This document shows positions 14,772-55,466 of a stretch of DNA of 64,000 nt, in pieces. Source of the stretch: Lachnospiraceae bacterium (GTDB taxonomy: Bacteria > Bacillota > Clostridia > Lachnospirales > Lachnospiraceae); NCBI GenBank assembly GCA_963643215.1, contig CAVIJY010000002.1:1073-65072 (forward strand). Reading direction: 5' to 3'. The notes below the pieces were generated by a model that ran no database searches, was not told where the DNA came from, and worked only from the letters and a program-made list of their open reading frames with translations. The first letter of the stretch is position 1; each line of letters opens with the position of its first letter. The translations under genes and the position numbers were made by a program.

Positions 14772-14841
14772 TGGTTCGGGTGCACCCGAACCTCCGATTA
14801 CTCGGATTGTTTCGTGCTTCGCACTCCCACAATCCGGTCTC
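14772..14841 (-). repeat. Structured intergenic repeat, family 1, copy A
   Basis: Near-identical to 23634-23702 and 47244-47313. Contains the perfect 20-bp palindrome GGTTCGGGTGCACCCGAACC plus a nested hairpin GGATTGT..GTGC-GAA-GCAC..ACAATCC. Confidence 0.85.
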
Positions 14842-14985
14842 CATTCGGATTCTCGTGGGGCTTTTGCCCCACTTCATCCTCATTGAGAGGCGTGTCATAA
14901 ACTCTATCTCCCACCGACATGTCCCTAAAGGGACTAGCTGCGCGTCGCAGCATGTCGTGGGAGATGAGTTTTGACACTGTAATCA

Positions 14986-15562: not shown

Positions 15563-15638
15563 AAAAAAACCTCCTTCTGATATAGGAGGGGGATACAGGC
15601 GCAGAAAGCACGCCTTTCGCGCGCTCTGCAGTATCAAT

Positions 15639-15747
15639 GCTTCCTTCCGCCGGCATTATCCGGTTCAAGTTATAAGGGTCAGCCGCGACACGCACCCGGT
15701 ATCAAACCTCCGTGCATACGCCGGCCTTCTCAGCATCTGCTCCCCCA
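15639..15747 (-). promoter_or_regulatory. TPP (THI-box) riboswitch
   Basis: Minus strand reads GGGGGAGC..GCTGAGA..ACCCTTATAACTTGAACCGGATAATGCCGGCGGAAGGAAGC, which matches the THI-box core. Downstream, CCCTCCT could sequester the AGGAGG Shine-Dalgarno. Confidence 0.88.
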
Positions 15748-15825
15748 GCAATTTGGACACTTACAGTATATACAAAAAGCCTGTTAAAGCAACAGTGATT
15801 TCTTTCTTCTGCATCAACAGGTCTT

Positions 15826-17415: not shown

Positions 17416-17523
17416 CCGATTAAATCCGTGACTCAACCTGTAGCTCACACTCCCTTGTAAAGTCAGACACTTGCTACACTATAACACAGCGGACACACCG
17501 TGTCAGTGTGTCCGCGTATTTTT

Positions 17524-17609
17524 ACGCGAAGCAATGAGTCAAAGTCTGAGCTTGCTCAAGACCTTGATGAATGCCGCGATAGCGAGGGAACACGCGAAGC
17601 GTGTTCCCG
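17524..17609 (+). repeat. Intergenic repeat, family 2, copy a (opposite orientation to the other two)
   Basis: ACGCGAAGCAATGAGTCAAAGTCTGAGCTTGCTCAAGACCTTGATGAATGCCGCGATAGCGAGG plus hairpin GGGAACACGCGAAGCGTGTTCCC. It is preceded by a hairpin (17491-17513) and a T run. Confidence 0.75.
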
Positions 17610-24689: not shown

Positions 24690-25286
24690 CTACTTCCGTT
24701 CATCCTTTTCTTTTTCGATCGACTTCATCTCTTCCTGCTCTATCTGCTTTGCCAGCCGCAGCGTCTGAATGATGTTCGAGGCCAGCACTGCCAGCAGCGG
24801 CAGCAATATGATCGGGAAAAATATCAGAGGATTGGAAGCCAGCCTCACAAGCTTTCCCAGCAGCAGAGACGACCATACCACCTTTCCGATGATTTCACTC
24901 TCGAATACCGGCTCATCGTCGATGCTGTGATTTGCATCACCCTTTGTCCGGAATATAAGTTCTTCGCCTGACTGCTCGATACCCACTATCCTGTGAGTAT
25001 TGACCATGCCCATGATCTGCTCATCCTTGGAATAAAAGGATATCACATCGCCCGTCCTCAGCGCACCCGGATCCTCCTCCCTGACAACTATAAACGAGTC
25101 AACCGGAAGCTCCGGCTCCATGCTGCCCGACATGACACGAAATGCCGAATATCCGAATACCTTCGGTGTATCGCCGCTCTTTGTGTTGATGGCTACAAAC
25201 AGAACATATATCGCCGCAAGAATAATTGCAATTGATATGAAATTGATGATTCCTGTTATCACTTTCCTTATCATGCTGCTTCCCAT
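24690..25286 (-). CDS. sipW: Signal peptidase I, SipW/archaeal type (copy 2)
   Basis: N-terminal TM, catalytic box VMSGSMEP, a second conserved box HRIVG, and a C-terminal TM. It is the last gene of the riboswitch R1 unit. Confidence 0.85.
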   Translation of the reverse strand: MGSSMIRKVITGIINFISIAIILAAIYVLFVAINTKSGDTPKVFGYSAFRVMSGSMEPELPVDSFIVVREEDPGALRTGDVISFYSKDEQIMGMVNTHRIVGIEQSGEELIFRTKGDANHSIDDEPVFESEIIGKVVWSSLLLGKLVRLASNPLIFFPIILLPLLAVLASNIIQTLRLAKQIEQEEMKSIEKEKDERK

Positions 25287-25352: not shown

Positions 25353-27713
25353 TCATTTTCTTCGTCCGAGCACACGGCCTATGTATCCGGACAGACTTGT
25401 ATCGTTCATCTCCCTGCTCAGCTCTCTGCCAAGCTCCCGGCGATTCTCCTCTGATTCGTCAAGCTCTCTTGTCTTTTTCTCAAGCTTTGAAGTAAGCTCC
25501 TCTATGCTCGCCTCCAGCTGTGACAGTTTCAGATCATTGCATGCCCTATCCTCCGCCCGAGCCGCATTTGCTTCGTCAAGCTCTCTTTGGAGCTCTCTTA
25601 AAGGCCTTTGAGCATCGATAGTCTCCTTCAGGCTTGCATTCTCCTGTTCCTGAGCCGATATCCTCTCAAGCAGCTCCTGCTGCGCCGCCTTGAGTCCGTC
25701 AGCCGTATCTCTGAGCTTCTGAAGATTCTCCAGAGCTTTTGAAAGCTCCTCCTGCACGCTGTCGCGAGCCTTCGTCATACGATCAAGCTCTTTTGATGTA
25801 GCTATGCGAAGCTTGTCCGCCACCTTCGCTTTTTCGCTCTCGGAGGCCGCCAGATCCTTATATCTTGCTATGTCCGCGTCGCTCGCCTGTCTGATGCCTG
25901 TAATCTTTGCATTGAACTCGGATACACTCGCCGCATACTTCTCGTTGAGCTTCGCTACACTGTCCTCATGCTCCTCTTTGAGCTTCGCTACACCGGACGC
26001 ATGCTCCGCATTGAGCTTCGCTAAACTTGCCTCATGCTCCGCATTCAGCCTTGCCGTGCCGGCTGTATGCTCCTTCTCGAGCCTTGTAATGTCGGCATCC
26101 TTTTCTTCTCTCAGCTGAGTCATGCTCTCTTCATGCTCCGCGTTGAGCACAGCTATGCTCTCGTCCCGCTCCTTGACAAGTCTGGCCATATCAGCCTCAT
26201 GCTTCGCATTCTGCCTTGCTATCTTTTCATTCTTTTCCTTCACGGCAGCGGCCACCTCAGCCTGTGAAGCTGCGGTTATATCGGCCACGGTTCTGTCCCG
26301 CTCTTCCTCGGCCTTCCTTATACCCTCTGTCTTCTCGGCTTCGGCCTTCTCGATGGCTGCCTGCTTCTCCTCCTCGGCCTTCTTTATACCCTCGGTCTTC
26401 TCAGCCTCGGCCTTCTCGATAGCCGCCTGCTTCTCCTCCTCAGCCTTCCTTATGCCCTCAGTTTTCTCAGCCTCAGCCTTCTCGATAGCCGCCTGCTTCT
26501 CCAGCTGAGCGCTTACGGCAGCGGCCTCCGCGTCAAGTGCCCGATTCTCCGCCTGTGCAGCACGCGCGTCCGCATCAGCTTTTGCATTCTCAGCCTCGAT
26601 GCGAGCCTGCTTTTCCTCCTCGTACTTGGCCTCGGCCTCCAGCTGAGCCTGAGTCACCTCCTCGATGAATACCCGGCGGATCTCCACATCCGGCAGATCC
26701 GGATCATCCACCTTCATCTCCTCTATCTTCTTGATGAACTTCGGGATTCTCTGACGGTGATGCTTCCAAAGCTCCTTCGTCAGCTCTCGATGATCAGGCT
26801 CGAGTATCGACTTGAACACCGCATAGTTCATGATAAAGTTCGAATACAGCTGGAACAGATACTCCTCATCGAACTGCAGCGTCGACTCCTCCACATTTAT
26901 GGAATAGCCGACCTCCTCATATGTCTCCAGAAACTGCCACAGCTTATAGCATATCCTGTAGTCGCGATCCTTCATCAGAAGGTTCGTCCTCTGTATAGGA
27001 CTGCGCACCTGCTGACATCCGTGCATCAGCTCGCAGAATGCGCTGTTTTTCAGAGCCATGGTCATACGCCTCACGCGATCGATACGCATGAAGACATTCA
27101 TATTGTCGCTGTCATTTTCGGCGAAGCTCTGCAGATTTTTTATAGTCATCTCGATCTTATAATCTATCTGCTCGTATGCATCGTCCACATGACTTGAAAA
27201 TGTCAGCTTGTTCCTTTTTTCATCTCCCGTAGACCAGAATATAACATCCGTTCTCTTATCGATGAATCTTACAAGGCGCTGGATGAGGTGGTATATGAAT
27301 CGGTTCTCATAAAGATCATATGTCTCCTCCACAGTTACATTCAGTATCTTTATGGGATTGACCTCACCGTCTTCCGCGCTTGCTATCAGCTGCGTGTTCT
27401 GACTCAGATGACGCACGCTCTCCGAGGAAATTCGCTTGGCAAGGGATACCGGCACGACCTCCTCGTTGGTTTTCAGCATACGGCGCGGATTCTCTATGAT
27501 CTTGTTTATGGAATCCAGCGCCTCCTCGATAGTGGACAGCCACCTCTCGTCCACCACCTTGCGCAGGATCTGATTCGTTTGATTGATCTCATTCTCACCT
27601 GCGCGGATCATGGTGAAAAGATATCTGAAGTACTTGTCGCCCTCCAGCGCTCCGCCTATGTTCTCAGCGTATTTCAGATACAGATCATTAAGTGTTGCGT
27701 TGTTTTCTTCCAT
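25353..27713 (-). CDS. McrC-N-terminal/DUF2357-like protein fused to a ~440-aa coiled coil; no nuclease motif recognised
   Basis: YDLYENRFIYHLIQRL is the McrC/DUF2357 hallmark (my recollection of the family). The C-terminal half is E/K/A-rich heptad sequence with internal repeats. The start was set at MEENNATL, 8 nt after GGGAG. Confidence 0.6.
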   Translation of the reverse strand: MEENNATLNDLYLKYAENIGGALEGDKYFRYLFTMIRAGENEINQTNQILRKVVDERWLSTIEEALDSINKIIENPRRMLKTNEEVVPVSLAKRISSESVRHLSQNTQLIASAEDGEVNPIKILNVTVEETYDLYENRFIYHLIQRLVRFIDKRTDVIFWSTGDEKRNKLTFSSHVDDAYEQIDYKIEMTIKNLQSFAENDSDNMNVFMRIDRVRRMTMALKNSAFCELMHGCQQVRSPIQRTNLLMKDRDYRICYKLWQFLETYEEVGYSINVEESTLQFDEEYLFQLYSNFIMNYAVFKSILEPDHRELTKELWKHHRQRIPKFIKKIEEMKVDDPDLPDVEIRRVFIEEVTQAQLEAEAKYEEEKQARIEAENAKADADARAAQAENRALDAEAAAVSAQLEKQAAIEKAEAEKTEGIRKAEEEKQAAIEKAEAEKTEGIKKAEEEKQAAIEKAEAEKTEGIRKAEEERDRTVADITAASQAEVAAAVKEKNEKIARQNAKHEADMARLVKERDESIAVLNAEHEESMTQLREEKDADITRLEKEHTAGTARLNAEHEASLAKLNAEHASGVAKLKEEHEDSVAKLNEKYAASVSEFNAKITGIRQASDADIARYKDLAASESEKAKVADKLRIATSKELDRMTKARDSVQEELSKALENLQKLRDTADGLKAAQQELLERISAQEQENASLKETIDAQRPLRELQRELDEANAARAEDRACNDLKLSQLEASIEELTSKLEKKTRELDESEENRRELGRELSREMNDTSLSGYIGRVLGRRK
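26306..26503 (-). repeat. In-frame tandem repeat, 3 x 66 nt (22 aa: QAAIEKAEAEKTEGI[RK]KAEEEK)
   Basis: Units start at 26306, 26372 and 26438 and are nearly identical at the DNA level. Confidence 0.9.
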
Positions 27714-27793
27714 CAGATATCTCCCGGCTGCAGACAATCAATCTCCCGCGGGCTCTTCAAAAGCCGGCGGGAGGCATATCCGATCCGCAGCAG

Positions 27794-27856
27794 CGCCTCA
27801 CGCGATCTCTGCGCATGAAGGCATTCATATTGTCATTGTCGGCGAAGCTTTGCATC
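27794..27856 (-). repeat. Intergenic relic copy of an internal segment (27067-27134) of the downstream gene
   Basis: CGCCTCACGCGATC..GCATGAAG.CATTCATATTGTC...GGCGAAGCT.TGCA is shared by both sites, at roughly 85% identity by eye. Confidence 0.7.
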
Positions 27857-27866
27857 ACGCTGTATT

Positions 27867-29600
27867 TCAATACAGATTCTGGATTCTTGTCAGATAATCC
27901 TGACTGTCCCTCATCTCGTTCTTGCCGAACACCTTCTCCATGTATACCATCAGATTCTTGATCTCATCACGGATGAACATCACATTCTGACTCTCGAACT
28001 TCTTGAGAATCTTTCTTGCAAATATGTAATCAAGACCGCCCAGCTCTGTTCCGCCGCATGCTACATACACGGGGATAAAATCATACATCTGCTTTGTGAT
28101 ACGGTTTCCGAATGCAAGCCTGAAGCGGCTCTGCAGATAGTTGTCAAGCTTTACCATCTTGGCAAGTGTGGCATCGCTTATCGGATGCTCATCCTTGGCC
28201 TTCGCGAAAAGCTCACGAAGATGCGCCGATGTCATCAGAAGCCTCGGCTCCATAGGACATTCAAACGGAGCAGCCTTTTCATTCAGCTCTATGGGCATCG
28301 CACGGTCATAAACCTTGTCGGTGATGGTAAATGTGGAATCGTCGTTGTTCGCCGTTCCGATATACCATGTGTTGTCGCTAACCTTAATCTTGCCGTTCTG
28401 AAGAAGCTCCGGATCCCCCGGCCACGGAGTGGGAACCAGCTCCACGAGCCATTCCTTCTTGTCAGGCATCTCCAGTACAGAAAGCATATCCGCAAAATAG
28501 TACTCTATACGCGCGAGGTTCATCTCATCCAGCACTATCATGGTGACATCCTCTCTGAAGCCCGCCTCATATACGGCCCTCAGAAATTCTGTCTCGTTGA
28601 AGCGCTTTGAGAATTCATTGAAATATCCCAGCAGATCCGTTCTCTCCCTGAATGACGGCTGCACAGATATCATCGTGGCCGGATTGTCAAGATACCGGCT
28701 GAATGAATACGGCAGTGATGTCTTACCTGTACCGGAGATACCCTCCAGAATCAGTATCTGACTCGAGGCCATACCCGCTACAAATCTTCGGACTATCTCA
28801 GGCGTATAGTACAGATGAAGCTGACTTGCGGCAAACCTTCTGTATCCCTCGACGATCTCCTCAAGCGTGACATTCTCATTGTATGCCGGCCACTCGTAGT
28901 CCCTGTACTTCTGATCCACCGCCTCCAGCTTCGGAAAGCGTGATGTGTTCGCACGTTCCTGCTCCTCTGCCGAGCTTTTGGCCTGAGCCACTGCCGTAGC
29001 AGCGGCGGCAGCAGCATTTGCTATGGTATCCGAGCTTATCTCTGCTCCCTCGATATTGCCGCCTATTCCCATGACAGTCCCGGCTGCAGCTCCGCCCTCG
29101 CCGGATACGGCTGTATCCGAGAGAGGATCCACAAGCCCGCCGACCAGTGCGCCTGCAGAACCGGCCGCACCGGGTACGCCGTCCCCATTCAGTCCGGCAG
29201 CTCCGTATCTGGCAAGCTCCTGTGTGGGAACCTTCATGGCGAGTATCTGCTCCTTCTCATCCATCAGCTCGAGCACCTGACGGTTGAGCCTTCCTATCTC
29301 CTTGTACAGCACCATGCTGTCCTGCCCGTCCATCCTCAGAGACGCCACCAGATAGATATGCCGTATGATAAGAATGATGATCAGGATCGGTATGGCTATC
29401 AATATGATCGCAAGGATGATAGACAGAAATCTTGCAACTATATTCATTGATACAAAATACGATCTGAATATGAGAGCGTATTCTCCCCAGCCCGTGATAA
29501 ATACCTTCACAAAGCCATTGATAAAATTCACAACCCATGAAGCTATGTTGTAGATGATTCTTGCTATCAGCTCATATGCGAGCTTGAGAAATTCACTCAT
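27867..29600 (-). CDS. Membrane-anchored McrB-like AAA+ (AAA_5) NTPase
   Basis: N-terminal TM helices (ILAIILIAIPILIIILII), a coiled coil and a G/A-rich linker. Then Walker A GISGTGKTS, Walker B MIVLDEMNLARIEYYF and GTANNDDS (compare McrB GTMNTADRS). The ATG overlaps the sipW stop. Confidence 0.7.
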   Translation of the reverse strand: MSEFLKLAYELIARIIYNIASWVVNFINGFVKVFITGWGEYALIFRSYFVSMNIVARFLSIILAIILIAIPILIIILIIRHIYLVASLRMDGQDSMVLYKEIGRLNRQVLELMDEKEQILAMKVPTQELARYGAAGLNGDGVPGAAGSAGALVGGLVDPLSDTAVSGEGGAAAGTVMGIGGNIEGAEISSDTIANAAAAAATAVAQAKSSAEEQERANTSRFPKLEAVDQKYRDYEWPAYNENVTLEEIVEGYRRFAASQLHLYYTPEIVRRFVAGMASSQILILEGISGTGKTSLPYSFSRYLDNPATMISVQPSFRERTDLLGYFNEFSKRFNETEFLRAVYEAGFREDVTMIVLDEMNLARIEYYFADMLSVLEMPDKKEWLVELVPTPWPGDPELLQNGKIKVSDNTWYIGTANNDDSTFTITDKVYDRAMPIELNEKAAPFECPMEPRLLMTSAHLRELFAKAKDEHPISDATLAKMVKLDNYLQSRFRLAFGNRITKQMYDFIPVYVACGGTELGGLDYIFARKILKKFESQNVMFIRDEIKNLMVYMEKVFGKNEMRDSQDYLTRIQNLY

Positions 29601-30400
29601 ATCCTGTCATCCTTGGATTCAGTCTGTTTTTTTGCGGACTCGTCCGCCTCAAGAGCCGCCAGCCGGGCCTGAGCCTGGGCAAGCTGTCTCTTCAGCCTCT
29701 CGGCCTCTGCCGCAGCATCCTCGCGGTTCTGCGCTCCTTCAGCAGACGCTCCCGCGTTAATCTGCGCCGCTGTACCTTTATCACTGTCCGGCTGCTCTGT
29801 TCGTACATTCTGTGCCGCCTGCGCCGCGGCCTGCGCTGTTTCTATGGCCACAGCCTTCTTCAGCTGGATGCTGACCATGATCAGGTGATATACCTGATAT
29901 ATGAAGAAGATCAGCATCGGCAGAACTATCACCACCAGAAATCCCGTCGAGCTTGACAGAAAGTCGAGCACCTTGCCGAGTCCCTTGACTCTTCCCGTGT
30001 ATTTTCCGACGATATCTCCGTCCGAGATGATATGAGTATCGCTTATCTGGTTGTTATCACCCTTTGTCACATAGGATCTGTATCCGCCGCTCTCGCTTAT
30101 CTCTACGATACGGTGAGTGTTCAGCGCGTACTGATTCAGAATGATGGTATGGAAGGTTATGATATCGCCCTCCTTCAATGTCGCGGGATCAACCTTTTTT
30201 ATGATGATCAGATCTCCCGCATCAAAGGTCGGGGACATTGATTCAGTCTGAACGGACAGCGGAGTATATCCGAACAGGTTGCTTACATTGTTCACGTCTC
30301 TGGTTGCAAGTGTGGTGAAGGTAAAAAGTGCCGCGAGCAGGATGACAGCCCATAACACAACGCTTGCAAGCACCGTCGCAACCTTCTTCAAGACTTCCAT
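29597..30400 (-). CDS. sipW: Signal peptidase I, SipW/archaeal type (copy 1) with C-terminal TM and ~90-aa charged tail
   Basis: Catalytic box VQTESMSP and second box HRIVE. A C-terminal TM is followed by the coiled tail AERLKRQLAQAQARLAALE. Confidence 0.85.
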   Translation of the reverse strand: MEVLKKVATVLASVVLWAVILLAALFTFTTLATRDVNNVSNLFGYTPLSVQTESMSPTFDAGDLIIIKKVDPATLKEGDIITFHTIILNQYALNTHRIVEISESGGYRSYVTKGDNNQISDTHIISDGDIVGKYTGRVKGLGKVLDFLSSSTGFLVVIVLPMLIFFIYQVYHLIMVSIQLKKAVAIETAQAAAQAAQNVRTEQPDSDKGTAAQINAGASAEGAQNREDAAAEAERLKRQLAQAQARLAALEADESAKKQTESKDDRI

Positions 30401-36160: not shown

Positions 36161-36364
36161 GACTTTGGCTCATTGCTTCGCGTAACTGCGGAAAACTCGC
36201 CTTGCGGTTTTCCTCGTTATCGCGGCATTCACCAAGGTCCCGTGCAAGCACGTGACCGTCAAGAATCTCTCCCTTTGCCGTGGATATGCTTCGCGCATCC
36301 ACGGCTGCGTGAGCGCTTCTTGACTTCCCCGTATACGGGGACTTTGGCTCATTGCTTCGCGTAA
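36161..36364 (-). repeat. Intergenic repeat, family 2, copy b (two 25-nt direct repeats flanking a 154-nt core)
   Basis: GACTTTGGCTCATTGCTTCGCGTAA occurs at 36161-36185 and 36340-36364. The core shares CCGCGATAACGAGGAAAAC..GTTTTCC with copies a and c and has extra hairpins. Confidence 0.8.
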
Positions 36365-36475
36365 AAAAACCAGCTCACATGTAAATCTCTGTGACCTGGC
36401 AACTGGCTGGCTGCAATGCCGCAGCCCCTATAGCTTTGCGTCATCGGATCGCTCCGATTTTGCCTTCTTTTCAAT
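36363..36475 (-). promoter_or_regulatory. c-di-GMP-I (GEMM-I) riboswitch R1 with terminator
   Basis: Minus strand reads AGAAGGCAAAATCGGA-GCGA-TCCGATGACGCAAAGCTATAGGGGCTGC..GCAGCCAGCCAGTTGCC. A CCAGGTCACA..TGTGAGCTGG hairpin and T7 follow. Confidence 0.85.
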
Positions 36476-48299: not shown

Positions 48300-49406
48300 T
48301 CAATCACCGCCGGTTGTCGTCGGAACCACTCCAACATAGCTGACCTTCACGCTCAAGCCGATGTCATCACTGTCAGACATGCCGACCATAGCCGCGCTGT
48401 CGGTACCCTCCAGCCATACATACACCTCGACATCCACTCCTGCTGTAGTCGCGGTGCAGAGCTTTGTGGTGCCTGCCTCATATATATGCTCTGATCCCGA
48501 TGACTTTTTCCCCTCATAGTCGGCCAATCCCGCGTCTCCGACTGTTATCGCAGGACTCTCAAGCTTCCATGTCGCCGAAGAGCCTGCTGTGGTTTCCTCT
48601 ACTATCGCCTTGTAGTTTGTATCTGCATCTCCGTCCGTATTACCGCTTTCGGTCTCCGCTACCGGAGCATATATGAGAAGCACATCCCCGCTTTTAATTC
48701 CTACACGAACCGCCTTTTTAAAGCTGTCCTTGCCGCTTGAGGTGCCGCTGGTATTTAAGGTTACCGTGATCGGAGCGTCCGGATTCAGATATATATCAAG
48801 ATCGCCGCTTTCGGTATACAGATTGTCGCATGTATAGTAGTACGCGGTTCTTTGCTGATTCTCAAAGGCATTCGTATAAACGCCTGATACCCCGGTTGAA
48901 TCAAGCTCGATCCCGCCGCCTGTAGTTATCTTCGTGAAGTCATCCGCCAGCGGCGCGGATATGTCCACCGTGGTGGTTGTGGTTGATCCCGAAGCGTCAA
49001 TAGTATACCCGCCCAGTCTGAAGCTGCTCGCATAGAACCAGTTCGTAAGATCATTGGTCGATATGGGATACAAGGCCGCTTCGATATTTCGTGTCACGCT
49101 TTCTGCATACTTCTTATCCTCATCCGCCTGAGCCTTCTCGCTTGACGGTCTGATATACAGGGACGGCGACGGAGTATCCGAGGTGATAGAGGAGTTGGCG
49201 CTTTCCACCTTTTTGTTGCTGGCAAACCACGCACGCGAAAGAAACGCACCCGTGGACATCCCTGCCACAAGCACGCTCACCATGATGAGCATTATCTGCT
49301 GGTGCATGCGTCTGCGCAACTGCGCGACAGACGGCACGGACTGCCCGTCCCGGACTGCCTCCTGTTCATTATCATATATGCGGTTTTTATCCCTGTTAAA
49401 CAGCAT
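48300..49406 (-). CDS. TasA/camelysin-like secreted protein with SipW-type signal; first gene of the R2 unit
   Basis: Start MLFNRDKN at 49406, after GAGGAA. Signal ...GAFLSRAWFASN. The C-terminus is VYVWLEGTDSAAMVG...LSVKVSYVG. In-frame upstream ATGs inside repeat family 2 cannot be excluded. Confidence 0.6.
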   Translation of the reverse strand: MLFNRDKNRIYDNEQEAVRDGQSVPSVAQLRRRMHQQIMLIMVSVLVAGMSTGAFLSRAWFASNKKVESANSSITSDTPSPSLYIRPSSEKAQADEDKKYAESVTRNIEAALYPISTNDLTNWFYASSFRLGGYTIDASGSTTTTTVDISAPLADDFTKITTGGGIELDSTGVSGVYTNAFENQQRTAYYYTCDNLYTESGDLDIYLNPDAPITVTLNTSGTSSGKDSFKKAVRVGIKSGDVLLIYAPVAETESGNTDGDADTNYKAIVEETTAGSSATWKLESPAITVGDAGLADYEGKKSSGSEHIYEAGTTKLCTATTAGVDVEVYVWLEGTDSAAMVGMSDSDDIGLSVKVSYVGVVPTTTGGD

Positions 49407-49426
49407 AAAATGATTCCTCAAGCTCT

Positions 49427-49544
49427 GACCTTGGCTCATTGCTTCGCGTAACTGCGGAAAACACGCTTTGCGAGTTTTCCTCGTTATCGCGGCGTTCATC
49501 AATGTCCTGAGCAAGCTCGGACCTTGATTCATTGCTTCGCGTAA
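49427..49544 (-). repeat. Intergenic repeat, family 2, copy c (two 25-nt direct repeats flanking a 68-nt core)
   Basis: GACCTTGGCTCATTGCTTCGCGTAA at 49427-49451 and GACCTTGATTCATTGCTTCGCGTAA at 49520-49544. The core contains the hairpin GGAAAACTCGCAAAGCGTGTTTTCC. Confidence 0.8.
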
Positions 49545-49650
49545 AAAAAATCAGCCGCTGCAAATATATATTATCTGCAACTGGCTGACTTATTCAAGTC
49601 CCTTTAGCTTTGCGTCACCGCTTCACAACGGCTTTGCCCCTCTATTTGTG
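49543..49650 (-). promoter_or_regulatory. c-di-GMP-I (GEMM-I) riboswitch R2 with terminator
   Basis: Minus strand reads GAGGGGCAAAGCCGTT-GTGA-AGCGGTGACGCAAAGCTAAAGGGACTT..AAGTCAGCCAGTTGC. The terminator is TCAGCCAGTTGCAGAT..ATTTGCAGCGGCTGA plus T8, and its 5' arm overlaps the aptamer 3' strand. Confidence 0.88.
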
Positions 49651-50329: not shown

Positions 50330-50511
50330 GCAGCTATATTATACCCGTTTCGCGTGTATTTTCAATGGTGTGTCGCGCAGAATTTTGCATGGAATAAATG
50401 TGTTTCTATCTCATTATTCGTTGTAAAAAATGTGGTTATGCAGCGAAATTTCGTCGCAATTTTTGTGATTATATATTATACTGTGCCTATATCATAAACG
50501 GAGGTGCCCAT

Positions 50512-51810
50512 ATGTACCGTATTGCAATTGAAAAGCTATCAAAATGGAAGGAAAGCAAGCATCGCAAACCTTTGATTATCGAAGGTGCCCGGCAGGTTGG
50601 CAAGACCTGGCTGATGAAAGAATTCGGCAGACAGGCTTATGCCGATACCGTATATATCAATTTTGACTCCAATTCCAGAATGACAGAGCTGTTTGCTTCC
50701 GATCTGGATACGGAGCGGCTGATAATGGGATTAGAGTTATATATCGGACGCAAAATTGATCCTGACAATTCATTGCTGATATTTGATGAAGTGCAGGAAG
50801 TCCCGAGAGCGCTAAGTTCACTCAAATATTTCTACGAGAACGCCCCTCAATATCACATCATGTGTGCAGGATCCCTGCTCGGCATCGCTATGCATCAGGG
50901 CACATCTTTCCCCGTAGGCAAGGTGGATTTTCTAAAGCTGTATCCTCTTTCTTTCAGGGAATTTCTGATGGCCACCGGCAAAGAGCATTACGCAGAATTA
51001 CTTGTTAAACAGGATTTTAAAATGATTACAGGCTTCAAGCAGACATACATCGATGCCTTGAAGCACTATTACTTTGTCGGCGGGATGCCCGAAGCGGTAC
51101 AAATTTTTGTTGAAAGTTGGGATTTTAGTGAGGTTCGCAGAATTCAAAGCGGAATCCTGGCAGCATACGAGCAGGATTTTTCCAAACATGCTCCCAATGA
51201 AATTGTTCCGAGGCTGCGCATGCTGTGGAACAGCATACCCTCGCAGCTGGCAAAAGAAAATAAGAAGTTTATCTATGGTCTTGTTCGTGAGGGTGCCAGA
51301 GCCAAAGATTATGAAACAGCAATCATGTGGCTCAGCGACTGCGGTCTCGTCCACAAGGTAAGCCGCATCAGCGCAGCGGATATCCCTTTGCGGGCACATG
51401 AGGATCTTAAAGCCTTTAAACTGTTTGTGTTGGATGTCGGACTTCTTGGCTGCATGACCGGACTGCGCCAGAGCACTTTGCTTGACGGCAATAGTCTTTT
51501 TGTAGAGTTCAAAGGCGCACTGACAGAACAGTATGTTTATCAGCAGCTCAAAACTGTCGATGGTCTAGAGGTTTATTACTACACCAACGACAGAGGATCC
51601 TGTGAGGTGGACTTTGTCGTTGATACCGGTGAAATGATTATTCCCGTAGAGGTGAAGGCAGAAGTAAACCTGAAAGCCAAGAGTCTGAAAACCTATCGGG
51701 AGAGATTTTCTCCCGAAATTTCCGTTCGCACATCCATGGCGGACTATAAAAAAGAGGACTGGCTCATCAATCTGCCGCTGTATGCTATAGATCAGATTGC
51801 GAATATATAG
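50512..51810 (+). CDS. AAA-domain ATPase with DUF4143 C-terminus
   Basis: Start MYRIAIEKL follows GGAGGTG. Walker A GARQVGKTW and Walker B LLIFDEVQ. The architecture is typical of the widespread AAA_14/DUF4143 family. Confidence 0.8.
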   Translation: MYRIAIEKLSKWKESKHRKPLIIEGARQVGKTWLMKEFGRQAYADTVYINFDSNSRMTELFASDLDTERLIMGLELYIGRKIDPDNSLLIFDEVQEVPRALSSLKYFYENAPQYHIMCAGSLLGIAMHQGTSFPVGKVDFLKLYPLSFREFLMATGKEHYAELLVKQDFKMITGFKQTYIDALKHYYFVGGMPEAVQIFVESWDFSEVRRIQSGILAAYEQDFSKHAPNEIVPRLRMLWNSIPSQLAKENKKFIYGLVREGARAKDYETAIMWLSDCGLVHKVSRISAADIPLRAHEDLKAFKLFVLDVGLLGCMTGLRQSTLLDGNSLFVEFKGALTEQYVYQQLKTVDGLEVYYYTNDRGSCEVDFVVDTGEMIIPVEVKAEVNLKAKSLKTYRERFSPEISVRTSMADYKKEDWLINLPLYAIDQIANI

Positions 51811-51875
51811 CATGAGAATGTTTTCAAAAGATGCACTTTGATTCTGTGAGATCGCAAAAACTGTGAGATCACAAA

Positions 51876-51901
51876 CAGGGGAGACCGCATGGCCTCCCCT
51901 G
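51876..51901 (-). terminator. Hairpin terminator between convergent genes (ends the R3 unit)
   Basis: CAGGGGAG-N10-CTCCCCTG, with TTTG following on the minus strand, 30 nt after the 385-aa gene stop. Confidence 0.5.
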
Positions 51902-51930
51902 TCATATCATTCTATCCTGTCAGATCCTGC

Positions 51931-53088
51931 TTATGTCGTAGGCATCTTGCACTGATTCGTTACATCAACCGGATACAGTCCGTCCACCAGCTTGTATACA
52001 AAACTGGATGTACCAAATGTTGTGCTAGTCGTGTACAGCTTTGTTCCGTCTGTCATAGCTACGCTAAGCTCGTAGTACTTTGTGCCGTCGATCGCGACTG
52101 TCTTGTCATCAGTTGTCTGTGCTGTCGCTGTCGACAGATCTGTCTTTGCTGCTGTGCTTGTTGCATTCAGCTTGGTTACAGCATCTGTTGTATCATCCTG
52201 AAGTGTTATCGCAACATCCAGATTCCATGCATCCGTCAGATTTGCAAATGTCGAGTTGGTGCACTTCTTATCCATACCTTCGATCCACATACGTATGGCA
52301 ACCTTATAGTACCTTGTCTCACCTGCAGCGATGTTGTCATCAATCACAGCATTTTCATTATTGGGTGTAAAGTCACAGGTCGCCACACTTGTCTCGCCCT
52401 CTACAGCTTCTGTACCATTTTGGTATTCATAACCGGTAGGTGCATATACCCACTTAAGGCTTGCCTTATCGATGGGGGCAACAGAAGTACTTTGTGTTGT
52501 TGTACCGGCATCTGTGACAAATACTGCTGTACGGAATGCCTTGATGGCCTCTGCATCTACACCGCCGTATACAAGATTAAGTCCTGTCATCACAACCTTC
52601 TGAGCAGAGGAGCCTGTGTTTACAGCCTTAAGACGGAAAACATAGTCTATATAACCCTTAGCACCATCAGTAGTCTTTATCTCATAGTTCTCAGAGAACT
52701 TGTTCTTGTATCCTGCAGATCCTGCCTCCTGGCCTGTAGTTGCATATTCAATAAATACATTATCGATTTGTGAACCGTCAGCTCTTGCATTTTTTGTGCT
52801 TGTATAGTAGAAATCATCGCCGTCAATCGTCGAAACAGGCTCCAGCAATGCGCTCTGCGACTGAACCAGCGCAGTCGCGAAATCTGTTTCAGGCACAGGA
52901 GTAGTCTGATTCTCTATTGTATCTTTCGCGATGAACAGGTTGTTGCTTACCTTTGTCGTCACGCTCATGCCTGTAGCCGTAACCTTGTTGTTTATCGCAA
53001 ACCATGCATATGTCGAGCTGCCGAGTGCTATAGCTGCGACCAGCACCATTGCGATTGCAGCCATCAGCTGCCTTCTTAATGCCTTCAT
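51931..53088 (-). CDS. TasA/camelysin-like secreted protein with SipW-type signal (candidate major subunit; monocistronic)
   Basis: Signal MKALRRQLMAAIAMVLVAAIALGSSTYAWFAINN, a strong RBS (GGAGG) and the C-terminus IRMWIEGMDKKCTNS. Confidence 0.7.
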   Translation of the reverse strand: MKALRRQLMAAIAMVLVAAIALGSSTYAWFAINNKVTATGMSVTTKVSNNLFIAKDTIENQTTPVPETDFATALVQSQSALLEPVSTIDGDDFYYTSTKNARADGSQIDNVFIEYATTGQEAGSAGYKNKFSENYEIKTTDGAKGYIDYVFRLKAVNTGSSAQKVVMTGLNLVYGGVDAEAIKAFRTAVFVTDAGTTTQSTSVAPIDKASLKWVYAPTGYEYQNGTEAVEGETSVATCDFTPNNENAVIDDNIAAGETRYYKVAIRMWIEGMDKKCTNSTFANLTDAWNLDVAITLQDDTTDAVTKLNATSTAAKTDLSTATAQTTDDKTVAIDGTKYYELSVAMTDGTKLYTTSTTFGTSSFVYKLVDGLYPVDVTNQCKMPTT

Positions 53089-53218
53089 AATCTTACCTCC
53101 GAGTAAATTCTTTGCCGGCCTGCACAGGCCTCAAAGGCATGCTCTGCATGTCCCTGACTTGTCCGGACTGTATTTGTCCGAACTATTTCATCCGAACTGT
53201 CTCGTCCAAGCTGCATAT

Positions 53219-53330
53219 AAAAAAACACATCTGCACCCTTTCGAAGCACAAATGTGGCAACTGGCTGACTGAGATCCCAGTCCCTCTAGTTTTGCGTCAC
53301 AACCTCACGATTGCTTTGCCCTTATCACTT
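53219..53330 (-). promoter_or_regulatory. c-di-GMP-I (GEMM-I) riboswitch R3 with terminator
   Basis: Minus strand reads AAGGGCAAAGCAATC-GTGA-GGTTGTGACGCAAAACTAGAGGGACTGGG..TCAGTCAGCCAGTTGCC. A CACATTTGTGC..GTGCAGATGTG hairpin and T7 follow. Confidence 0.85.
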
Positions 53331-53336
53331 GGTTCG

Positions 53337-53365
53337 AGTATAACTGCTGCAATAGCTAAAATCAA
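53337..53365 (-). promoter_or_regulatory. Sigma-A-type promoter for R3 (TTGATT-17-TATACT)
   Basis: -35 at 53365-53360 and -10 at 53342-53337, with the aptamer starting about 8 nt downstream. Confidence 0.6.
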
Positions 53366-53480
53366 GCTTAAATAGAGAAACAATACTGTCAATTTTGCAT
53401 CGTTTTGAATACAGTAGTTTCATTCTCCCTTATTCTTTGTTTCTTATTCCTTATTCCTTATTCCCTATCACCGTTTCGCG

Positions 53481-54752
53481 TCACTGTGTGCCGGAAGCAT
53501 CCGTGCTCTCGCTCTGCTCTCCCCCGTTGCGTCTGGTATACCAGTTCACATTCTGATACTTGAAGTAGTCGGGAGCTTCTGTTCCTGCCGCGCCGATGGG
53601 TCTGTCTCCGCTGATGCTGTCCTTGATATCCTGTATGAACTTCGCAAGGAGCGTGGTTTCATTGTTGTCCGCCGCCGCGATGTTCATAGAGAACTCGACC
53701 GAGCCGCCTATGATGTCATCGATGCACTCGGGATCGTCTCCCTCCATCCATATGACGACAGTATACTTGTTGACATATCCTACCTTGAAGTCATTCTCCT
53801 GAAATGAGCATACCACCTTGGGGCTTTCAAAGTTCACGCAGCCCTGCTCCGGCTCCCCGCCGGCAGACGGCCATGCATACACTGTTCTGACTCCGTCTCT
53901 CCATACGGCGACTCTCGCCGCCTCCTCTGCGCCCTTGGAGCTGGAGTCCAGCGTGACTCTAGCTATATAGTCCACATCCTCCTTGCCCGCATTTCTCACA
54001 TAATAGGTATATGCCATATAGTTGCGTCCGTTATGACCCCCGTCCACATCCGCTATATCAAACGGCAGATCCTCTATGGATATATTGGTCGCGTCCTCCA
54101 CATGACTTGCCACAAGCCTTGCGGTAGGCGATGTAAACTCGGGATCCGCCGACATGGCTATTCCCTTCCTGAAAAGCTCAAGTCTGTCCAGATTGATGGT
54201 GAAGTTGCCCATCCGCTCCTGCATGAACGCCAGTATGAAAAGAAGCGCTATCGCCATGAGCGACCCCATCAGAAAGAGTCGCATTTTGTCAAGCCTCAGC
54301 AGAGCCCGTCCTATCAGCTTCGCGCGTCTTACGGGGATATATGTGCTGAGTACATCGCGGGTATCCTCCTGATTGTAGTTGTAATCAGCCTTTCCGATAT
54401 CCTCGACACGAACCATGCGGAAGCTCTGCCGCTTCTTACTTCTTTTGAAGAGTCTTTTTTTTGAGTTCTCCGGTTCGCCGTCTCTGTCCGCACGAGCAAA
54501 CCGTCGAAGACCACGCGACTGCTTTTTCTGCCCCTCGGGGAGCTGAGCTTTGCCTGAGGCTTCATTCTCACCCGGAGTCTGAGTCCATCCCGGAGCCTTG
54601 ATCTCGCCCGAAGCCTCCGGCTGCCCGTCACTTCGAGTATCAGCTCTCTCGGGTTCGGTCTCCTGCATCTCCTCCTCGAGCGGATCTCCTATCTCATATT
54701 CATTTGTATCGGCATCCTGTCTGTACTTGTCATGCCAGTGCTTATCATTCAT
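53481..54752 (-). CDS. Membrane-anchored TasA-like protein (acidic cytoplasmic N-terminus, one TM, extracellular TasA-like domain)
   Basis: TM LFLMGSLMAIALLFILAFM without an A-W-F cleavage-type motif. The C-terminus VVIWMEGDDPECIDDIIGGSVEFSMNIAA is shared with the fibre-subunit family. Confidence 0.6.
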   Translation of the reverse strand: MNDKHWHDKYRQDADTNEYEIGDPLEEEMQETEPERADTRSDGQPEASGEIKAPGWTQTPGENEASGKAQLPEGQKKQSRGLRRFARADRDGEPENSKKRLFKRSKKRQSFRMVRVEDIGKADYNYNQEDTRDVLSTYIPVRRAKLIGRALLRLDKMRLFLMGSLMAIALLFILAFMQERMGNFTINLDRLELFRKGIAMSADPEFTSPTARLVASHVEDATNISIEDLPFDIADVDGGHNGRNYMAYTYYVRNAGKEDVDYIARVTLDSSSKGAEEAARVAVWRDGVRTVYAWPSAGGEPEQGCVNFESPKVVCSFQENDFKVGYVNKYTVVIWMEGDDPECIDDIIGGSVEFSMNIAAADNNETTLLAKFIQDIKDSISGDRPIGAAGTEAPDYFKYQNVNWYTRRNGGEQSESTDASGTQ

Positions 54753-54785: not shown

Positions 54786-55466
54786 TCAGAGCTTGTATAC
54801 CTTTCTTGCGTGCTCTACATACAGAGCCATCCGCTCCTTCTCCTCCGGGTCTGCAAAGCGGTACTGGATACCGCACATGAACTTGTACATGCTGCCCTTC
54901 GGAGCCTCCCGCTCCCAGCATACGACTCCGGATATATCGTCAATCCCGGCGCCGTCCGGCTCCGTGCCCACACGCGGCAGACTGCAGTTTATGACCTCGC
55001 CCACCTCGAATCTGCTGCTCATAAAGAGCGCCATACCTCCTGCGGAGATATCCAGCGTGAAGCCCTCGCTCGGCTCTATCACGCCATCCGCATTGACAGG
55101 CCAGGTCTCCGACATATAGCTCATGCGAAGAGATATCCTGTATCGTGTGTCCTGACGCTGCGTGTACTGACGCTGGTTGCTGACCCTGCGTATCTTCCAG
55201 CAGCTTCTGAAGCCCTCCGTGACCGCATCATCGGCAAATCCCGCTATGATCATCTCCTCGGAGCCTGACTCATAGCGGAACAGGAGCTTTTGCATATTGT
55301 CGAACTCGGCTTTTCTGCCGTCGCTCATCGGTACGGTTATCAGAAATGCCGCATCATCCACCTGCTTCACGAAGGTGCATATCATATTGAATTGCGGATC
55401 CTGCCCTGCGGGCATCTCCCTTGCGGCCTGCATTCGCATGCCCGGTTTTATCGTAAGCTCAGCCAT
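54786..55466 (-). CDS. YcgR-like PilZ-domain c-di-GMP receptor
   Basis: RxxxR (QRQDTRYRI) and D-x-S-x-x-G (LDISAGGMAL) PilZ motifs in the C-terminal half, with an N-terminal PilZN-like half. Confidence 0.75.
   Translation of the reverse strand: MAELTIKPGMRMQAAREMPAGQDPQFNMICTFVKQVDDAAFLITVPMSDGRKAEFDNMQKLLFRYESGSEEMIIAGFADDAVTEGFRSCWKIRRVSNQRQYTQRQDTRYRISLRMSYMSETWPVNADGVIEPSEGFTLDISAGGMALFMSSRFEVGEVINCSLPRVGTEPDGAGIDDISGVVCWEREAPKGSMYKFMCGIQYRFADPEEKERMALYVEHARKVYKL

Follow-up and report, generated by a model that had tools for sequence, protein, structure and literature searches.

The window analysed here is a stretch of 64,000 nucleotides (nt) from a Lachnospiraceae bacterium (contig CAVIJY010000002.1). 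It contains a cyclic di-GMP (c-di-GMP) riboswitch, termed R3, which is situated in front of a gene for a secreted protein of 385 amino acids (aa), in the following called the subunit. All coordinates are positions in the window, and R3, its promoter, the leader, and the subunit gene lie on the minus strand (Table 1). An earlier sequence-only reading had proposed for this unit a promoter TTGATT-17-TATACT, a GEMM-I core, a hairpin with a U7 terminator, a spacer of 130 nt followed by GGAGG-N7-ATG, and an open reading frame (ORF) of 385 aa, and all of these features were found, either exactly or within about 1 nt of where that reading had placed them. Taken as a whole, R3 is probably a canonical class-I ON switch for a secreted, SipW-processed, and possibly fibre-forming subunit. 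For comparison, 80 related loci (around 0.46 Mb) were surveyed with Rfam at gathering thresholds. Two of them are referred to repeatedly: L078 is a near relative with about 96 % DNA identity to the window, and L044 belongs to a metagenome-assembled genome of Agathobacter sp., the closest species representative, in which the DNA of the flanking genes is about 80 % identical to that of the window.

Table 1. Positions of the R3 unit and of further features in the window (RBS, ribosome-binding site; MFE, minimum free energy).
Feature	Position	Strand	Evidence or detail
Sigma-70-like promoter	53337..53365	-	TTGATT (-35, 53365-53360), 17-nt spacer, TATACT (-10, 53342-53337)
c-di-GMP-I (GEMM-I) aptamer R3	53253..53330	-	RF01051 match, pocket nucleotides, P2/P3 covariation
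Predicted P1 helix	53249..53331	-	CAAGUG (53331-53326) with CAUUUG (53254-53249); MFE fold of transcripts ending before the terminator 3' arm
P2 helix of R3	53314-53309 / 53304-53299	-	GUGA loop at 53308-53305
P3 helix of R3	53291-53259	-	ends in AGCCAGUUGCC
Intrinsic terminator of the expression platform	53219..53256	-	13-bp hairpin 53256-53226 and U7 at 53225-53219; terminator scan, full-length folds
Leader spacer	53101..53218	-	118 nt, U-tract to RBS; direct repeats TCCGAACT (53177-53204) and GUUCGGAC/GUCCGGAC 8-bp hairpin
RBS and start codon	53086..53100	-	GGAGG (53100-53096), 7-nt spacer, ATG (53088-53086)
Secreted-subunit ORF	51931..53088	-	385 aa; ORF list
Terminator-like hairpin after the subunit ORF	51875..51902	-	12-bp GC-rich stem, 4-nt loop, then UUGU
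Riboswitch R1	36395-36474	-	RF01051, 62 bits
Riboswitch R2	49573-49648	-	RF01051, 56 bits
SipW-type signal peptidase	29597-30400		TIGR02228, 104.3 bits
SipW-type signal peptidase	24690-25286		TIGR02228, 96.3 bits
TACGCGAAGCAATGAGCCAAAGTC copy	17523-17546	+	
TACGCGAAGCAATGAGCCAAAGTC copy	36161-36184	-	
TACGCGAAGCAATGAGCCAAAGTC copy	36340-36363	-	
TACGCGAAGCAATGAGCCAAAGTC copy	49427-49450	-	
TACGCGAAGCAATGAGCCAAAGTC copy	49520-49543	-	

Concerning the identity of the aptamer, a cmscan search of the whole window with the Rfam 15 covariance models gave for R3 a full-length match to RF01051 (c-di-GMP-I; model positions 1-87 of 87) with 59.0 bits (E 5.4e-9), the gathering score of this family being 35 bits; the check with RF01051 that the sequence-only reading had proposed is thus significant. 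In the cmscan alignment the core consists of GGCAAAGC, P2 with its GUGA loop, GACGCAAAAC, and P3 closing with AGCCAGUUGCC. The positions of the binding pocket are canonical both in this alignment and in an alignment of 33 aptamers from the related loci (G20 = 53320, A47 = 53293, C92 = 53257); in the Vc2 structures these three nucleotides (Vc2 numbering) are the ones that contact the ligand. The same 33 aptamers were used for a covariation test of the consensus P2/P3 structure. Standard pairs are formed by 96.3 % of the P2/P3 cells, 10 of the 17 pairs are altered on both sides, and none of 500 shuffles matched the observed covariation score, with slid controls paired at 14-40 %. By sequence and covariation, R3 is almost certainly a genuine class-I c-di-GMP aptamer, and presumably it binds c-di-GMP.

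The GGC variant of this class (RF03167, c-di-GMP-I-GGC) was rejected for R3. It gave a better E-value than RF01051 in a scan of the small region around R3, but its score of 52.2 bits stays below its own gathering score of 59, for which reason R3 was assigned to RF01051; furthermore, position 47 is A, not G. Among the relatives, one aptamer (L017, 5716-5793) barely passes the model of the GGC variant (59.2 vs. 59).

R3 resembles Vc2 of Vibrio cholerae and the Cdi-1 series of Clostridioides difficile, both belonging to RF01051, in the GNRA-type tetraloop of P2, in the GACGCAAA junction, and in the three pocket nucleotides, and it shares with RF01051 riboswitches the use of an intrinsic terminator as expression platform. 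In contrast to the RF01051 consensus, its P3 is devoid of the bulged tetraloop-receptor segments, as is usual where the P2 loop is not GAAA. The RNA is therefore a further instance of a well-known class, ordinary but solid. In about one third of the related aptamers (e.g., L001 2532-2611, L080 132-211, L081 3680-3759) an A is found in place of G at position 20, a substitution associated in GEMM-Ib riboswitches with cyclic GMP-AMP (cGAMP) or relaxed specificity.

The pairing of riboswitch and subunit gene recurs. The survey yielded 38 matches to the c-di-GMP-I clan; C. difficile 630, termed exceptionally riboswitch-rich, possesses 12 class-I copies genome-wide (PMC6200980). At 11 loci the aptamer is situated 54-390 nt directly before a subunit gene (L001, L043, L044, L046, L048, L050, L056, L061, L078, L080, L081), and at a further nine it precedes an operon that ends in a subunit gene (L002, L005, L007, L012, L016, L027, L059, L063, L077), typically in the order standalone EAL protein, membrane protein, subunit (EAL domain confirmed by Pfam in L002, L005, and L012). 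The remaining aptamers stand before the membrane-protein gene or before genes for other paralogs or for SipW. Against a strict coupling stand many loci of the family, including those of cultured Ruminococcus flavefaciens and R. albus, at which the 3-kb flanks contain no riboswitch. The pairing is frequent, not universal.

Some further variation was seen among these loci. The gene before the membrane-protein gene encodes a standalone EAL protein in L002, L005, L007, L012, L016, and L059 and a PilZ protein in the window (54786-55466), in L078, and in L044, such that EAL and PilZ, both c-di-GMP-binding modules, seem able to replace each other here. In some relatives the first aptamer is followed by a second, tandem or partly degenerate one (L002 1154-1330; L063 883-962 and 1033-1112; leaders of L001, L080, and L081), and in L001, L080, and L081 the leader from aptamer to start codon measures 380-382 nt.

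The subunit itself is composed of a signal-peptide-like helix (residues 2-23), the near-invariant motif STYAWFxxNxxVTxTGM (24-41), an all-beta core (around residues 40-300) in which the motif W-x-E-G-x-D-x-x-C is invariant, and a small beta domain at the C-terminus. The most conserved columns form two sets, T26, A28, W29, F30, N33, V36, T39, G40, and M41 on the one hand and R266, W268, E270, G271, D273, and C276 on the other. AlphaFold2 models of the full-length protein and of the core (residues 29-300) reached a predicted local distance difference test score (pLDDT) of 87.3 and 89.3 and a predicted template modelling score (pTM) of 0.83 and 0.87, respectively; the sole stretch of low confidence in the full-length model, residues 19-39, coincides with the most conserved residues (24-41). 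Two SipW-type signal peptidases are encoded in the window, both above the cutoff of 51.85 bits of TIGR02228 (archaeal/SipW-type signal peptidase I); the model of Bacillus SipW matches both as well, with scores that stay under its cutoff. Cleavage of the subunit is predicted after ...STYA, which would make W29 the mature N-terminus.

An exhaustive profile search recovered 5,248 cluster representatives (50 % identity) of the subunit family at E <= 1e-3 and 1,889 at E <= 1e-10; a word-index search gave at least 1,229 homologs. Relatives were found by genome scan in R. flavefaciens, R. albus, Lachnospiraceae, Oscillospiraceae, Erysipelotrichaceae, and Collinsella, and the family has no Pfam or NCBIfam assignment. 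Within the window, the family profile identifies five significant paralogs of 410, 266, 296, 288, and 351 aa. By inspection, two giant proteins (1,407 and 1,335 aa) carry the N-terminal motif ...S(L/F)AWY, and the membrane protein encoded directly upstream of R3 (53481-54752, minus strand) possesses a C-terminal W-M-E-G-D-D-P-E-C region that is weakly similar to the subunit (hhalign E 0.0019, 14.6 % probability).

Across distant genomes the N-terminal 45-70 residues of the subunit are 57-78 % identical and the rest is unrelated; the body is unalignable even in L044. In clusters at 90 % identity the subunit has a single member, compared with 9-11 for its PilZ, membrane-protein, and SipW neighbours. 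The GC content at third codon positions (GC3) of the subunit gene is 0.45 vs. 0.58-0.70 around it, within a low-GC block from about 49.45 to 53.5 kb. A conserved N-terminus joined to a swapped body is typical of horizontally exchanged filament subunits or surface antigens, and the subunit may well be of this kind. The neighbouring ATPase gene (50398-51810, plus strand) shares the low GC content (GC3 0.45-0.49 vs. 0.58-0.70 in the flanks); since L078, 96 % identical to the window, has no such gene at this position, the segment is regarded as about 2.2 kb of inserted DNA.

Whether the subunit builds a fibre is, on its sequence and predicted structure, about an even question. In a Foldseek search against the PDB, the core gave one match at E <= 1e-3, to FimA (E 6.6e-4, template modelling (TM) scores 0.28/0.42), and its weak matches are enriched in fibre subunits (FimA, the TasA fibre, EcpA, CooA, CanA, Ena). 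Several results weigh on the other side: the full-length model gave nothing at E <= 1e-3 in the same search, and no match of either model reached a TM score of 0.5, such that no fold equivalence is established; searches of PDB sequences with the family profile (0 matches at E <= 10), Pfam on 62 relatives, and hhalign against TasA disclosed no homology to known fibre proteins; and nothing in the codon usage points to very high expression (effective number of codons 46.9). That the subunit is a major fibre component required in excess is plausible, though codon usage lends it no support.

The same absence of significant structural or sequence matches to any fibre protein would suit a monomeric surface protein, an adhesin, or an S-layer-like coat that is processed by SipW and does not polymerise, with the aptamer being just as real. 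Carbohydrate-binding modules and yeast adhesin domains are likewise among the weak Foldseek matches, and a hypervariable surface body suits any exposed antigen. What such a protein hardly explains is the near-invariant and predicted-disordered N-terminal segment past the likely cleavage site; moreover, paralogs and giant proteins that share just this N-terminal module are reminiscent of a major pilin accompanied by minor pilins and a tip adhesin. A non-polymerising protein is accordingly considered rather unlikely.

The closest conceptual relatives of such a fibre are the sipW-linked fibres of TasA (tapA-sipW-tasA, Bacillus subtilis) and BsaA (sipW-bsaABC, Clostridium perfringens; PMC7395162; bioRxiv 10.1101/2024.11.04.621531). 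Equally to the subunit, both are secreted, beta-rich proteins with a SipW-type peptidase encoded nearby, and the cleavage-region motif T-[WY]-A-x-F is similar among them (by eye, GSSTYA|WF in the subunit resembles GGGTWA|AF in TasA). In TasA a disordered N-terminal segment acts as donor strand (PMC9674648), and for BsaA such a segment has been modelled in this role (bioRxiv 10.1101/2024.11.04.621531). Membership in this family was tested at several levels and was not found. Pfam, NCBIfam, PDB profile, hhalign, and Foldseek searches (full model and core) were negative or insignificant: Peptidase_M73, the Pfam family of TasA and camelysin, matches neither the subunit nor any of the 62 relatives; hhalign of the subunit family against B. 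subtilis TasA, with a TasA sequence entered by hand, aligned 11 columns near the cleavage motif at a probability of 0.4 %; and the TasA fibre (8aur_A) is matched by the full model with E 0.08 and TM 0.17 and by the core with E 9.3e-3 and TM 0.26/0.29, at rank 10. Nothing in NCBIfam matched the subunit at E <= 0.1, including the model of the SipW-cognate signal peptide (TIGR04088). In contrast to TasA and BsaA, the subunit is larger, consists of two domains, and carries the W-x-E-G-x-D-x-x-C motif, and its locus, unlike theirs, also encodes several paralogs together with giant proteins and partners of the PilZ/EAL type. The literature searches disclosed no control of tasA or bsaA by a c-di-GMP riboswitch. 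The label TasA-like, given to the subunit by the sequence-only reading, has thus to be withdrawn as a statement of homology; it is valid only as an analogy of biogenesis, drawn from the SipW context and the look-alike cleavage region.

Concerning the transcription unit, the promoter of R3 scores 9/12 against the consensus. Matches of this grade number 23 in the region vs. 10.9 +/- 3.3 in shuffles, and because they are so frequent the match is weak when taken alone. The promoter is identical in L078, and L044 keeps TTGCTT-17-TATACT together with a block, AGCAGTTATACTCGA, that holds the -10 element, the DNA upstream being unaligned; this conserved footprint supports the R3 promoter. Transcription is predicted to start at about 53331-53329, and an own promoter of R3 is plausible. 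Upstream, neither sequence inspection nor a terminator scan disclosed a terminator between the stop codon of the preceding gene (53481) and the promoter, and therefore transcription of the PilZ and membrane-protein genes may run on into the unit. A GGAATAA-type tandem repeat is situated in this interval (53423-53464), with one unit more in L078.

At its other end the unit is bounded by a strong hairpin, which lies in a 76-nt region that folds at -30 kcal/mol (z = -3.39). The sequence-only reading had placed a terminator here (51876-51901); the hairpin is confirmed, whereas its U-tract is imperfect, UUGU standing in place of a clean U-run. The next gene, which encodes the ATPase mentioned above (AAA_14/DUF4143), is convergent. 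In L078, where this ATPase gene is missing, riboswitch R2 follows next after the subunit gene, which stands alone there too. The claim of a monocistronic unit is hence well founded downstream and, as regards read-through from upstream, less so.

The lack of an upstream terminator and the moderate promoter score would also agree with R3 acting mainly as an internal attenuator of a longer PilZ, membrane-protein, and subunit transcript, with the predicted promoter being minor. Indeed, the counterparts of these three genes in L002, L005, L007, L012, and L016 are separated by very short gaps and form a single operon headed by a riboswitch. On the other hand, -35 element, spacing, and -10 element are conserved in L044, unlike the neighbouring intergenic DNA, and the aptamer starts at a distance that fits a transcription start. 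We consider a mainly internal attenuator unlikely; both sources of transcription could coexist, with the riboswitch gating both.

Between the U-tract and the ATG, the leader comprises 130 nt, as determined by direct reading of the sequence. Its spacer is about 99 % identical in L078, with repeats and hairpin retained; in L044 neither of these is conserved, only the region of the RBS, including GGAGGTAA. A second RNA element in this spacer was rejected: the sole Rfam match, FourU (E 0.4), was taken as chance, and the repeats are not conserved in L044.

The direction of switching can be judged from the way in which the terminator (folding energy -13.6 kcal/mol) is built into the aptamer. Its 5' arm begins at 53256, i.e., at C93, the second C of the terminal GCC of the aptamer and 4 nt inside the Rfam match, and takes up the entire 3' strand of P1; therefore P1 and the terminator are mutually exclusive. 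In the predicted folds, inclusion of the terminator 3' arm lets the terminator supplant P1, with P2 and P3 remaining, and no separate anti-terminator is predicted for the R3 leader. The pairing of the terminator is kept in L044 despite several changes on both arms. In 33 of the 38 aptamers of the c-di-GMP-I clan (window and related loci), a hairpin that abuts a U-run (gap of 0-4 nt) starts 4-21 nt inside the aptamer; the stem sequences of these 33 are unrelated, and the overlap layout alone is conserved. Since the terminator overlaps the 3' strand of P1 and a separate anti-terminator is lacking, R3 is probably a transcriptional ON switch. The same ON layout is known from the pbuE (ydhL) adenine riboswitch of B. 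subtilis, in which the 5' arm of the terminator is made from the 3' strand of the aptamer and ligand binding blocks the terminator; aptamer and ligand are unrelated to those of R3. The sequence-only reading had spoken of a c-di-GMP switch without stating its direction; a bona fide aptamer and an intrinsic terminator are present, and to these the architecture adds that it points to ON.

Some observations speak against this direction. P1 is short (6 bp) and AU-rich, and its first nucleotide coincides with the predicted transcription start or lies no more than 1-2 nt from it; compared with L044, one of its pairs becomes a wobble and one an A-C mismatch, such that covariation support from these two sequences is unclear; the fold of the whole leader is no stabler than that of shuffled sequence (z = -0.93); and in C. 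difficile all class-I riboswitches that have been tested act as OFF switches (PMC6200980). This last point, together with a terminator far stabler than the predicted P1, would favour R3 being an OFF switch or a constitutive, non-switching attenuator. An OFF switch, however, needs a terminator that is compatible with the ligand-bound aptamer plus a separate anti-terminator, whereas the R3 terminator uses up the 3' strand of P1 as well as C93, no anti-terminator is predicted, and the overlap of terminator and aptamer is common to the 33 of 38 relatives, which makes this alternative very improbable. In contrast to the tested C. difficile set, R3 has the 3' end of its aptamer built into the terminator, which predicts an ON switch.

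In C. difficile, ON switching is the property of class II, class I being OFF (PMC6200980). There the c-di-GMP ON riboswitch Cdi-2-4 directly precedes the major pilin gene pilA1, and high c-di-GMP induces a surface filament (PMC6200980). R3 may be seen as functionally parallel to this class-II riboswitch before a type IV pilin gene, although it belongs to class I and to another system, and no homology is implied. A type IV pilin-like or archaellin-like subunit that retains its N-terminal hydrophobic helix as filament core is highly improbable and was rejected: weak Arch_flagellin matches at residues 12-64 occur in 5 of 62 members and pilins typically combine a conserved N-terminus with a variable body, but the subunit's own match (20.8 bits, cutoff 29.5) is sub-threshold and covers the hydrophobic stretch only, the G/A that prepilin peptidase requires at position -1 is missing from the leader MKALRRQL, the predicted helix is short and stops at residue 23, and a scan of the proteins encoded from 19 to 64 kb disclosed no PilB/PilC/PilD-type genes, SipW-type peptidases being present instead.

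The remaining window contains further parts of the locus. Upstream of R3, besides the PilZ protein, an HD_5 protein is encoded that is similar to c-di-GMP phosphodiesterases of the HD-GYP type. The terminators of R1 and R2 overlap their aptamers too. R2 precedes the genes for the 410-aa paralog, a 311-aa protein, and both giants, and R1 precedes a gene for a 679-aa protein, with further paralogs downstream. A 24-nt element, TACGCGAAGCAATGAGCCAAAGTC, each copy of which includes an ATG, is present in five copies vs. 0 expected; four of the five are situated in the leaders of R1 and R2, downstream of the terminators, and none in the leader of R3. The start codons of the longest ORFs at 53481-54752 and 48300-49532 (both minus strand) probably lie too far upstream: the cluster of the 423-aa protein consists mostly of proteins of 363 aa, and the L078 homolog of the 410-aa protein was called at 368 aa. 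Between both genes for SipW-type peptidases, a pair of McrB-like AAA_5 and McrC-like DUF2357 genes (25353-29600, minus strand) looks like an inserted restriction or defence module. Outside the locus, a Clostridiales-1 RNA (14795-14985, minus strand, 115 bits) and a thiamine pyrophosphate (TPP) riboswitch (15625-15756, minus strand, 57 bits) fit an origin from Clostridia.

For the ON switch with a secreted subunit, the following course of events is proposed. Transcription would start from the sigma-70-type promoter, which lies some 6-8 nt before the R3 aptamer. Without c-di-GMP the 13-bp hairpin with its U7 would form and transcription would stop, whereas c-di-GMP bound at the three-helix junction would stabilise P1 and thereby withhold the 5' arm of the terminator, such that the polymerase could continue across the 130-nt leader into the single subunit gene. 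The signal peptide of the beta-rich protein would then most likely be cut after ...STYA by the SipW-type peptidases of the locus. This cleavage would expose WFxxNxxVTxTGM, to which we ascribe a putative role in subunit-subunit assembly; it would probably be the donor strand by which subunits join into a surface polymer or an extracellular fibre.

The value of R3 lies less in the RNA itself than in its lead to an unnamed, widespread secreted-protein system. Literature searches found no matching riboswitch/SipW/PilZ fibre system in Clostridia and no account of the subunit family or of its riboswitch control; the secreted-protein system under c-di-GMP control thus appears to be uncharacterised as well as widespread. 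Its coupling to c-di-GMP is tight, as riboswitches of the related loci head subunit genes, EAL-led operons, membrane-protein genes, and SipW genes, and PilZ or EAL proteins are encoded alongside. As a tentative view of the whole, three class-I ON riboswitches together with PilZ/EAL receptors and an HD-GYP-like enzyme might control an undescribed SipW-dependent fibre system of gut and rumen Firmicutes, comprising several minor paralogs, giant tip-like proteins, a membrane-anchored paralog, and a major subunit whose near-invariant N-terminus would be the assembly module and whose hypervariable body is exchanged horizontally. Such a Gram-positive pilus or matrix fibre, having no sequence relationship to TasA, sortase pili, or type IV pili, might then represent a new class.

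For riboswitch biology, these loci provide a large natural set of class-I aptamers laid out as ON switches, in contrast to the situation in C. difficile. If the products do form fibres, major fibre-degrading and butyrate-producing gut anaerobes would possess an adhesion or matrix structure induced by c-di-GMP, the subunit of which would vary between close strains as flagellins and pilins do.

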